64,000 nt of DNA. It comes from an uncultured Owenweeksia sp. (GTDB taxonomy: Bacteria > Bacteroidota > Bacteroidia > Flavobacteriales > Schleiferiaceae). Position 1 is the first letter of the stretch. Each line of letters begins with the position of its first letter. Below the pieces are notes generated by a model. It was given only the letters and a program-made list of their open reading frames with translations. It was not told the origin of the DNA and made no database searches. The translations under genes were made by a program, and so were the position numbers. The DNA lies in NCBI GenBank assembly GCA_964619125.1, contig CAZUCA010000009.1, forward strand, positions 804-64,803, in the 5' to 3' direction. Below are positions 15,508-64,000 of this stretch, piece by piece.

Positions 15508-15715
15508 GCAATTATTGAAGATTTTCTAAAGGCGATAACGCCCTAATTTTCTACTGTTTAACCAGCTATTTTAAGAACTATTCTACCCGTCTGGTGGGGC
15601 TTGCAGTAAGGCCTGAACGATCATTTTGTGAACAAAAAGCGGCTATTTTTTTTGTAAAAAAAGCGGAAGCCGAAAAGCTTTAATCAGAGTAGGCACAACT
15701 AACCATTACACAAAC

Positions 15716-63121: not shown

Positions 63122-63224
63122 CAAATGTAAATAATTATTCGGGAAGAAATAAAAATTATCCACAAGGCTTTTTGAAAAAGCTGTACACTTATTTTGATTT
63201 GTTCGCTGGCAATGACTAATTTTG
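63122..63224. promoter_or_regulatory. Divergent -7 elements for prs and tRNA-Leu
   Basis: TACATTTG (minus strand, 63122-63129); TAATTTTG (plus strand, 63217-63224) with TTTG 20 nt upstream. Confidence 0.55.
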
Positions 63225-63254
63225 CCGCCCGCAAACGCGAATTGAAGGAGCAAA

Positions 63255-63345
63255 GTTAAAGGTTTGAAGCGTTGCCGCCTATAAGGGGGCTAACTTTAAA
63301 ACCTTGAACCCTGTCTGCCGACAGGCAGGCTTACAACTTTCAACC
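63255..63345 (+). repeat. Heptamer-type arrays in the tRNA leader
   Basis: GTTAAAGGTTTGAAG (63255-63269) can pair with CTTTAAAACCTTGAAC (63294-63309); TTACAACTTTCAACC follows. Confidence 0.6.
63310..63329 (+). repeat. REP-like 20-bp palindrome CCTGTCTGCCGACAGGCAGG
   Basis: 8-bp stem with one G-U and a CCGA loop; resembles a dispersed Bacteroidota palindrome family I recall; single copy in this window. Confidence 0.65.
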
Positions 63346-63350
63346 ACCGC

Positions 63351-63432
63351 GCCCAGGTGGCGGAATTGGTAGACGCGTTGGTCTCAAACACCAATATCTT
63401 CGGATGTACCGGTTCGACTCCGGTCCTGGGCA
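63351..63432 (+). tRNA. trnL: tRNA-Leu (CAA)
   Basis: Acceptor GCCCAGG/CCTGGGC, D-loop GGAATTGGTAGAC, anticodon stem TTGGT/ACCAA with loop CTCAAAC, long variable arm, TTCGACT T-loop; discriminator A; CCA not encoded. Confidence 0.97.
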
Positions 63433-63435
63433 CTG

Positions 63436-63467
63436 AAAAACGCCCCGACTTTCGTCGGGGCGTTTTT
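63436..63467 (+). terminator. Terminator after tRNA-Leu
   Basis: AAAAACGCCCCGAC/GTCGGGGCGTTTTT perfect 14-bp stem. Confidence 0.8.
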
Positions 63468-63474
63468 GTTTTAA

Positions 63475-63511
63475 GGCTCTAAGGTTTTAAGGTTTTAAAG
63501 TTTCAAGGTTG
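63475..63511 (+). repeat. 8-mer tandem array GGCTCTAA-GGTTTTAA-GGTTTTAA-AGTTTCAA-GGTTG
   Basis: Read directly; 63491-63502 is the exact reverse complement of 63292-63303. Confidence 0.6.
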
Positions 63512-63601
63512 TACGGGGGCCTCTCAATCCCAATTTTGGCTGTTGGCTCGGGTTAATATCTGATAGGATCTCACTAGGTTTTTCAAAGAGTTGATTGGTA
63601 T

Positions 63602-63760
63602 GTTCATTTTGGCTTGACCCAAAACGAACCAAAAAGTCAAGAAGCTTTCAAGGAAATTTCCGGCTAATGCCGGAAACGCTGGAATTTATCGCTTCATGCG
63701 TTGCCCTCCCTTGCTCGGGCCGCAATGTCACTCAATTCTGCGCTATTTCTGTGAAAGCTT
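63602..63760 (-). ncRNA. Structured element with a terminal H-type pseudoknot (ncRNA or non-autonomous repeat)
   Basis: AAGCTTTCA/TGAAAGCTT closing stem, internal TTTCCGGC/GCCGGAAA hairpin, CTTGAC/GTCAAG stem crossed by GTTCGTTTTGG/CCAAAATGAAC. Confidence 0.55.
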
Positions 63761-63767
63761 CGGCCTA

Positions 63768-64000
63768 TTACTCAGATTCCTCAGCGGTAAGCCTCCCCGC
63801 CGTATTGGGTGTGCTCAGCAGCTCCTTAAACACGGCCCACCTTCTGTCCGGATTATCGGCAGTACCACCTTTGCTTTCCACATAATGCGCAACCAGGTCC
63901 TTACCCAGGTTGTAGTTGATCACGTAGCTACGATACTGCTCCATAAAGCGGGTGCGTTGCAGGGCACGGTCGGGGGCCATCAGGGCGTATTTCTCCAGCC
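63768..64000 (-). CDS. C-terminal part of a conserved hypothetical protein, 5' end outside the window
   Basis: Frame open to the window edge: ...WLEKYALMAPDRALQRTRFMEQYRSYVINYNLGKDLVAHYVES...; tandem TAA-TAG stops. Confidence 0.7.
   Translation of the reverse strand, partial: LEKYALMAPDRALQRTRFMEQYRSYVINYNLGKDLVAHYVESKGGTADNPDRRWAVFKELLSTPNTAGRLTAEESE

Follow-up and report, generated by a model that had tools for sequence, protein, structure and literature searches.

REP/BIME, ERIC, BOX and Correia repeats of Proteobacteria and Firmicutes are short, non-coding and multi-copy sequences, nearly always intergenic and often located just 3′ of genes, which can fold when co-transcribed; BOX repeats are modular and BIMEs contain inverted pairs. 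REPs stabilise upstream mRNA against 3′ exonucleases. The element described here, a fold of about 160 nt on the minus strand of a 64,000-nt stretch of contig CAZUCA010000009.1 from an uncultured Owenweeksia sp. (hereafter the window), is closest to these repeats in its behaviour and shares these properties with them, mRNA stabilisation being in its case a proposal, although inverted pairs occur only in its Balneolaceae and Dysgonomonas gadei families and not in the window. However, there is no sequence relation: the palindrome is preceded by a T-run and a CTTGAN arm instead of a GTAG box, no RAYT gene was seen in the 8-kb flanks, and the subfamily present in the window lacks terminal inverted repeats (TIRs). 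Unlike simple-palindrome repeats, it has a multi-helix junction, a covarying pseudoknot and conserved unpaired blocks, and its core is shared across Bacteroidota and Balneolales orders. A full-text search with its 16-mer core retrieved no paper and keyword literature searches found no description either; the family is previously undescribed, with one copy in the 64-kb window, where no second one was found. Our preferred reading, to which we assign a probability of roughly 40%, is that of a co-transcribed stabiliser in the 3′ untranslated region (UTR), or a 3′-end RNA element.

The first-pass annotation, made from the letters of the window, had described an outer stem, an 8-bp hairpin, two crossed stems and tandem stop codons just upstream, and all of them are present (Table 1). 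Along the outer stem, 63641-63657 pairs with 63745-63761 (17 nt, 88% complementary), its P1b part sitting within the conserved blocks CAGAAATAG and AAATTTCCTTGAAA. The terminal 11-bp hairpin carries one G-U, at stem position 5, a pair that reads A-C on the plus strand, and its six loop bases, GTCAAG, are the exact complement of CTTGAC. Because all six of them pair and none is left on either side, the geometry is that of a loop bound to a strand and not of a classical H-type knot: the crossed pairing proposed at first stands, the H-type geometry does not. One base, the last of P1, also opens the knot arm, so that P1, knot helix and hairpin can stack on one another. Folding energies are -64.4 kcal/mol for the minus strand (z = -5.6; none of 200 shuffles is as stable) and -56.9 kcal/mol for the plus strand (z = -3.8 relative to shuffles). 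A chance fold is ruled out by the shuffle z-scores together with the covariation described below.

Table 1. Features of the window copy and its immediate surroundings (positions of the window).
Feature	Position	Strand	Remarks
Whole "type W" element	63602..63762	minus	161 nt, CGAAGC to ATGAAC; homology limits, fold z = -5.6
P1 outer stem, 5′ strand (GAAGCTTTC)	63753..63761	minus	pairs with 63641-63649
P1 outer stem, 3′ strand (GAAAGCTTC)	63641..63649	minus	last C (63641) doubles as first base of the pseudoknot arm
P1b, 5′ strand GAAAT	63745..63749	minus	pairs with 63653-63657 (ATTTC); nearly invariant, 96.7% paired
Inner arm P2-P3	63677..63743	minus	stem closing a hairpin (GCCC/GGGC in the window); includes conserved GCATGAAGCGA
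P4 hairpin TTTCCGGC-ATTA-GCCGGAAA	63657..63676	minus	8 bp, 63657-63664 with 63669-63676
Pseudoknot 5′ arm CTTGAC	63636..63641	minus	complements loop 63613-63618; covaries across classes
T-rich linker TTTTTG	63630..63635	minus	T-run nearly invariant
11-bp hairpin GTTCGTTTTGG-GTCAAG-CCAAAATGAAC	63602..63629	minus	63619-63629 with 63602-63612; loop is the pseudoknot 3′ arm
Tandem stop codons TAA-TAG of the upstream co-directional open reading frame (ORF)	63765..63770	minus	ORF cut by the window end
Perfect 14-bp inverted repeat, A-run on one side and T-run on the other	63436..63467		context, outside the element

Homology sets the limits of the element. Similarity to loci L005, L060, L148, L151 and 13 other copies spans exactly 63762-63602 with unrelated flanks, and L005, for instance, matches from CGAAG to ATGAAC and nothing beyond; the start given at first pass, 63765, is therefore trimmed by 3 nt. 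The whole element defines a family that we call type W, for which a junction-pattern search located 5 metagenome loci and 28 genome loci, in Flagellimonas, Croceivirga, Croceitalea, Aureisphaera, Euzebyella, Saonia, Owenweeksia and Schleiferiaceae among others, with seven copies in one Flavobacteriaceae metagenome-assembled genome (MAG). In an alignment of 18 intact copies (81% mean column identity), RNAalifold gives 49 pairs, 20 of them compensatory. Including the knot, the structure has 54 pairs in 9 helices, with standard pairs in 96.8% of the sequence-by-pair cells, against 42-54% in slid-partner controls, and double-sided changes at 21 pairs, a value equalled in 0 of 500 shuffles. By helix, P1 pair 6-128 (alignment A6) is AU in 11 copies, CG in 2, GC in 2 and UA in 1; helices 3, 4 and 6 of the inner arm (helices 3-6) show both-sided changes in 12 of 14 pairs, helix 5 being nearly invariant; P4 (helix 7) has compensatory changes at 5 of 7 pairs; and the closing knot pair is AU in 9, UA in 5 and CG in 2. 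Three blocks, CAGAAAUAG, GCAUGnAGCGA and AAAUUUCCUUGAAA, are conserved and unpaired.

The 3′ hairpin with its linker and knot arm, referred to here as the module, also occurs outside type W. Its flanks differ among loci while whole units repeat within a genome, which makes the module a component common to several repeat families. An exact 29-mer, made up of the 11-bp hairpin and the G before it (63630), is shared by 18 loci of species-representative genomes, with Gracilimonas, Rhodohalobacter, Balneola, Owenweeksia, Profundicola, Dysgonomonas and Balneicella among the carriers, and identical arms with a free loop are found at more than 119 loci of such genomes (Flavobacteriales, Bacteroidales and Balneolales). 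Some genomes are multi-copy, and among the matches listed there are dozens of copies in D. gadei alone. Viral contigs gave one match and phage records none; three Parabacteroides distasonis "plasmid" records hold unannotated module copies. The only match outside Bacteroidota and Balneolales among the matches listed lies in a 2.7-kb contig of Methylobacterium crusticola (L066); it keeps the hairpin arms around a palindromic loop, GTATAC, has neither T-run nor knot arm, and may be contamination or chance.

Loop and arm change together across these copies. Sorted by loop, ATCAAG goes with CTTGAT (38 copies), GTCAAG with CTTGAC and GCCAAG with CTTGG; type W adds the class CTTGAA/TTCAAG, and the diverged matches of a module covariance model (201 matches in 97 loci) add GTGAA/TTCAT, GTGAG/CTCAT, CGAT/ATCG, CGAC/GTCG, ATGTC/GACAT and TGGC/GCCA pairings. 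With arm-loop covariation in at least 9 sequence classes, the crossed stems seen in the window are real. Pairing statistics over 105 distinct covariance-model matches, which include a class without the knot, give 97.9% paired and 6 covarying pairs for the hairpin stem, and 78% paired with both-sided changes at 5 of 6 pairs for the knot helix. Observed covariation was equalled in 0 of 500 shuffles, and sliding the partner columns lowers overall pairing of the module from 92.2% to 33-52%. Instead of a single copy with neither homologues nor covariation, the outcome that the first-pass annotation had named as fatal to its proposal, we thus find a dispersed family whose crossed stems covary; its statement that similar motifs are scattered through intergenic DNA of Bacteroidota proved correct, since copies are numerous and 132 out of 134 lie between genes.

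Wobble pairs and folding energies favour one strand as the folded one. G-U outnumbers A-C by 83 to 6 in the hairpin and, with the fixed G-U column excluded, by 19 to 6 in type W. In addition, when the upstream domains are folded on their own, with the module removed, the module strand gives the more stable structure in 83 of 112 loci (Wilcoxon p = 2.6e-9). The G-U excess and this folding asymmetry point to the module strand, minus in the window as suggested at first pass, being the folded single strand. RNA is the simplest reading of the folded molecule, single-stranded DNA being the remaining alternative.

Positions relative to genes are consistent with co-transcription. Leaving the Dysgonomonas class aside, copies have an upstream gene in the same direction in 35 cases and in the opposite one in 18, and copies between tandem genes are sense in 18 cases and antisense in 6. 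Type W follows a co-directional gene in 19 of 27 loci and is flanked by convergent genes in ten; the unit often starts 11-77 nt after a stop codon (in the window, 3-5 nt past the tandem stops of the upstream minus-strand ORF) and is kept behind gltD, at orthologous positions, in three genomes. No conserved sequence or promoter was seen 5′ of the type W unit in the compared flanks, so no promoter of its own is visible. Contigs of RNA libraries contain the module. Of the three functions guessed at first pass, a 3′ stabiliser or exonuclease block fits these position data best, a fit and not a demonstration.

We propose that the element is a cis-acting non-coding RNA module in the 3′ UTR of the upstream gene. 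Read-through from that gene would yield a compact fold of ~160 nt in which P1 encloses two arms and the 3′ hairpin follows directly; as the entire 6-nt loop pairs with the strand leaving P1, the P1, knot and hairpin helices could stack. The U-rich linker may then lie in the major groove and form U.A-U triples with four U-A pairs beside the loop, which are invariant, as is the T-run of the linker. The linker runs parallel to the A-rich strand, the polarity needed for such triples, and its length tracks the A-tract of the stem (r = 0.51, a phylogenetically confounded correlation). Such an arrangement would resemble triple-helix or pseudoknot 3′-end protectors (ENE/MALAT1-type triplexes, telomerase-type U.A-U pseudoknots and exonuclease-resistant RNAs) in a U-rich strand placed parallel to an A-tract, in its position on the 3′ side of a transcript and in its invariant U-A pairs; it differs from them in its bacterial host, in capturing no poly(A) or A-rich tail and in the absence of homology, and the triplex itself is, on sequence grounds, a possible feature only. 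A 3′ end locked in this way would stall 3′-to-5′ exoribonucleases or define a processing end, so that either the upstream mRNA is stabilised or a stable 3′-UTR-derived RNA is left. The repeat families bearing the module would multiply within genomes by a non-autonomous route.

Several observations weigh against this proposal. About a third of the copies are not behind a co-directional gene, and one in P. distasonis (L147) is antisense to both of its neighbours, the genes for the "smalltalk protein" and HU. In the largest class, that of Dysgonomonas (loop GCAATG, 53 copies), the pseudoknot arm has been lost. For the triplex, the evidence consists of invariance and one phylogenetically confounded correlation. 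A nuclease roadblock would hardly seem to need a 29-mer that is nearly identical across orders, and this suggests a sequence-specific partner. The contigs of RNA libraries lack strand and end information and can contain DNA. Finally, in the window a terminator-like repeat follows ~135 nt further downstream, and the element itself is therefore not the transcript end.

The boundary between T-run and hairpin is a rearrangement hot spot. G+C-rich palindromes have entered it in L155, L159, L163, L166 and L168, a 29-nt "ATCCTGAGCG" unit is inserted there in L156 and L172, the module is replaced by a different 3′ hairpin in L176 and L178, and it is missing altogether in L150 and L162. These rearrangements show modular exchange at the DNA level, which keeps alive an explanation in which the hairpin, perhaps in single-stranded DNA, is the site that a recombinase or transposase encoded in trans recognises, or at which it makes its crossover (an enzyme of the REP/RAYT-like or IS200/IS605-like Y1 type, or a tyrosine recombinase acting on the 11-6-11 core), the repeats being non-autonomous mobile DNA and any RNA incidental. 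Such a site would account for the inverted-repeat layout, which fits recombinase core sites, for a 29-mer identical across orders, as protein-binding sites often are, for many copies in varied contexts, for the inverted module pairs at the ends of a 555-bp D. gadei element and the convergent pairs of Balneolaceae arrays, and for an orientation relative to genes that is only moderately biased. We nevertheless consider it unlikely: the covarying multi-helix upstream domain and the conserved unpaired blocks are not needed for known DNA sites, and loop-arm covariation and G-U excess favour a folded single strand. The G+C-rich palindromes, such as CCTGCCCGGCCGGGCAGG, stand in the linker of type W elements after CTTGAN-TTT, and their repeated insertion suggests a second small repeat that targets this site.

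The neighbouring genes also speak against a DNA site with a dedicated enzyme. All-against-all clustering of 1353 ORFs from the 8-kb regions around 125 loci revealed no enriched protein family, recombinases and transposases included, apart from a spurious ORF inside the D. gadei repeat; tyrosine recombinases occur at 4 loci and an IS110 transposase at 2 loci of one MAG. Neither did a Pfam scan of ten window ORFs, which look housekeeping, find a transposase or nuclease, in agreement with the first-pass annotation, which had noted no cognate enzyme nearby. Its suggestion of a non-autonomous mobile element agrees with copy number and varied contexts; against it, type W has no TIRs, target-site duplication, common flanking target or identifiable mobilising enzyme. 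In particular, its ends, CGAAG and ATGAAC, are not inverted as in miniature inverted-repeat transposable elements, although the 555-bp composite of D. gadei does have TIRs, with the module inside.

Comparison with described recombination sites leads to a similar result. An integron attC site was rejected: there is no GTTRRRY core, the foot of the hairpin being GTTCGTT, most copies are solitary, and an integrase is near L012 and L017 only. attC sites act as folded single strands. Both they and Xer/dif sites are alike in the 11-6-11 inverted-repeat geometry, and some module copies stand in repeat-rich regions near toxin-antitoxin genes or an integrase; the differences are the G-U pairs in the arms, a spacer that pairs with an upstream arm, and integrases that are not consistently adjacent. 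A dif/Xer site was also rejected: the geometry fits, but such a site is 28 bp long, occurs once per replicon and has conserved Xer-binding arms, whereas a genome can hold up to dozens of module copies, with arms that covary.

Scaffold RNAs offer another comparison. TnpB omega RNA (reRNA) and dCas12f single-guide RNA likewise have a pseudoknotted scaffold of ~120-170 nt with a sharp end and variable sequence after it, and Flavobacteria have scaffold-plus-3′-guide RNAs for dCas12f as well as abundant orphan hth-associated non-coding RNAs (PMC13472631). The element could accordingly be a trans-acting RNA, either a protein-bound, guide-like scaffold with a variable 3′ flank or a processed small RNA with target-pairing loops: its 3′ limit falls exactly at a highly conserved hairpin, beyond which the sequence is unrelated, its unpaired blocks CAGAAAUAG and GCAUGnAGCGA resemble interaction surfaces, and the strict conservation of the stem suggests a specific protein partner. 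We regard this, too, as improbable. No effector gene of the TnpB, Cas12f or IscB type is near any copy (~150 loci), no tnpA or tnpB is adjacent as in IS200/IS605 elements, and copies stand behind unrelated housekeeping genes; no rpoE-dcas12f context was seen, and only three odd copies touch a helix-turn-helix (HTH)-like ORF. The unit has no conserved promoter before it, and the 3′ flank of the window copy has no meaningful match elsewhere in the window. In the knot of TnpB reRNA, guide-flanking bases pair with an upstream loop (PMC10711439), whereas the knot of the present element joins the loop of its last hairpin to a strand located 5′ of that hairpin; with this topology and no linked gene, a TnpB omega RNA is ruled out. 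As no effector gene is linked, the guide-scaffold guess of the first-pass annotation found no positive evidence.

The Rfam scan that had been proposed at first pass returned no match to the element, even at permissive thresholds. With Rfam 15, the window gave only tRNA-Leu and DUF805b, positions 63200-64000 nothing relevant at E <= 10, the module no match in 31 loci, and the Owenweeksia and D. gadei elements no match at E <= 1. Among the families of Rfam are those of the IS605-orfB and HEARO type, and the lack of a match counts against a guide-like scaffold as well.

Aptamers of the SAM-II and preQ1-II type are typically small pseudoknots with contacts in the major groove, and an element of this kind might regulate the downstream gene, as a riboswitch-like or translational switch that hides the AUG in CCAAAAUGAAC or as an unconventional terminator. 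The 3′ arm indeed has an A-rich sequence followed by AUG, and some copies nearly fill the spacer between convergent genes, leaving no room for another terminator. Even so, we find this highly improbable: ORFs opened by that AUG have a median of 11 codons, so it is not a start codon; downstream genes are convergent as often as co-directional; there is no U-tract after the hairpin on either strand and no match to a riboswitch family; and multi-copy dispersal beside unrelated genes is unlike a riboswitch. A conventional intrinsic terminator was rejected as well, the stem being A/U-rich and followed by AUACC or AAGAAA, with the T-run on its 5′ side.

Other repeat families join the module to different bodies. 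In an Owenweeksia MAG it belongs to a 505-nt unit with three copies (L007 1193-1710, L015 and L017), where a 10-nt long-range inverted repeat (GTTACCTGCA/TGCAGGTAAC) surrounds ~375 nt including the module; in L017 the unit begins ~20 nt past a tyrosine-integrase gene. D. gadei has dozens of ~555-bp G+C-rich elements in an A+T-rich genome (L084 1530-2130 and ~40 other Dysgonomonas loci), with TIRs (AATGCSAATCAGTAGTT) and two modules, an inverted one near the left end and one without the knot near the right; the element is fully covered by contigs of termite-gut metatranscriptomes. Balneolaceae have module arrays with convergent module pairs. The array regions (L013 1000-5900, L012 1741-2697 and L079 1250-4050) are repeat "junkyards" that hold toxin-antitoxin-type genes (Unstab_antitox, ParE, DUF433 and DUF5615), "GTCATTGCGAGCGAAG"-type repeats and a tyrosine integrase with, by eye, integron-integrase-like motifs. 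In one Balneolaceae MAG, the IS110-family transposase is convergent to a module copy (L080 4904-6112; L006 2-877 and 6799-6979), and a group II intron D1-D4 match is near this locus.

That type W, the Owenweeksia 505-nt repeat, the Balneolaceae units and the Dysgonomonas element share one 3′ end raises the idea that hairpin and pseudoknot serve as the handle of a novel type of mobile or protein-guided RNA in Bacteroidota and Balneolales, served by a single trans-encoded partner. Structurally distinct RNA bodies would carry the same handle. A candidate for the partner is a reverse transcriptase or an RNA-guided enzyme whose gene lies elsewhere in the genome. Such a system would account for a stem that hardly varies, for the sharpness of the 3′ boundary, for the exchange of modules where linker meets hairpin, and for a spread to unrelated loci that leaves neither terminal repeats nor duplications. 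We hold it to be quite unlikely.

Two variants deserve mention. In Profundicola (L002 6098-6409), a 99-aa opposite-strand ORF amid RHS-toxin cassettes reads the complement of the hairpin as ...FGLTQNEP...; by eye it resembles a 5′-truncated XRE-type HTH protein, with no Pfam match, and a remnant of it is inserted between T-run and hairpin in L098 (7747-7850). The P. distasonis copy L147 (2340-2570; NZ_OY725754.1) is an unannotated module variant with the stem GGTTACTTTTGG/CCAAAAGTGAC, followed by a 28-nt tandem duplication of loop and 3′ arm.

If the fold acts as RNA, it would rank with the more widely distributed structured non-coding motifs of Bacteroidota that Rfam does not yet contain: there are hundreds of copies in Flavobacteriales, Bacteroidales and Balneolales, and the carriers include gut genera (Parabacteroides, Dysgonomonas and Prevotella) and abundant marine flavobacteria. 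To our knowledge, Bacteroidota have neither Hfq nor ProQ, and little is understood of how they control gene expression after transcription. A portable 3′-end element with a pseudoknot and perhaps a triplex, if true, would offer a testable handle on mRNA stability in these organisms and a compact part for engineering transcript stability. The sharing of a 3′ module by unrelated bodies, with a hot spot at its foot, also bears on how repeats move without a visible enzyme.

Around the window copy, the upstream ORF is represented by a 76-aa C-terminal fragment, which has no Pfam match. A 96-aa plus-strand ORF was considered as a coding alternative and rejected: it overlaps the upstream gene and is not conserved. 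Downstream follow an 8-nt tandem repeat, the 14-bp inverted repeat, a convergent tRNA-Leu(CAA) and then prs, rplY and pth. Conserved synteny was rejected, as relatives (Owenweeksia/Cryomorphaceae, L25 ~70% identical) retain prs and tRNA-Leu without the element. The inverted repeat is likely a bidirectional intrinsic terminator serving both the transcription unit of the element and tRNA-Leu, a label we infer because a simple terminator scan did not list the repeat. Directly adjoining it, after tRNA-Leu, four to five tandem 8-nt units (GTTTTAAG, plus strand) occupy 63468-63515, and across tRNA-Leu, at 63292-63305, there is a 14-nt match to the same unit. Elsewhere in the window, positions 15660-15695 on the plus strand hold a full-length match to the Rfam DUF805b RNA motif, at 49.9 bits against a gathering score of 35.6.

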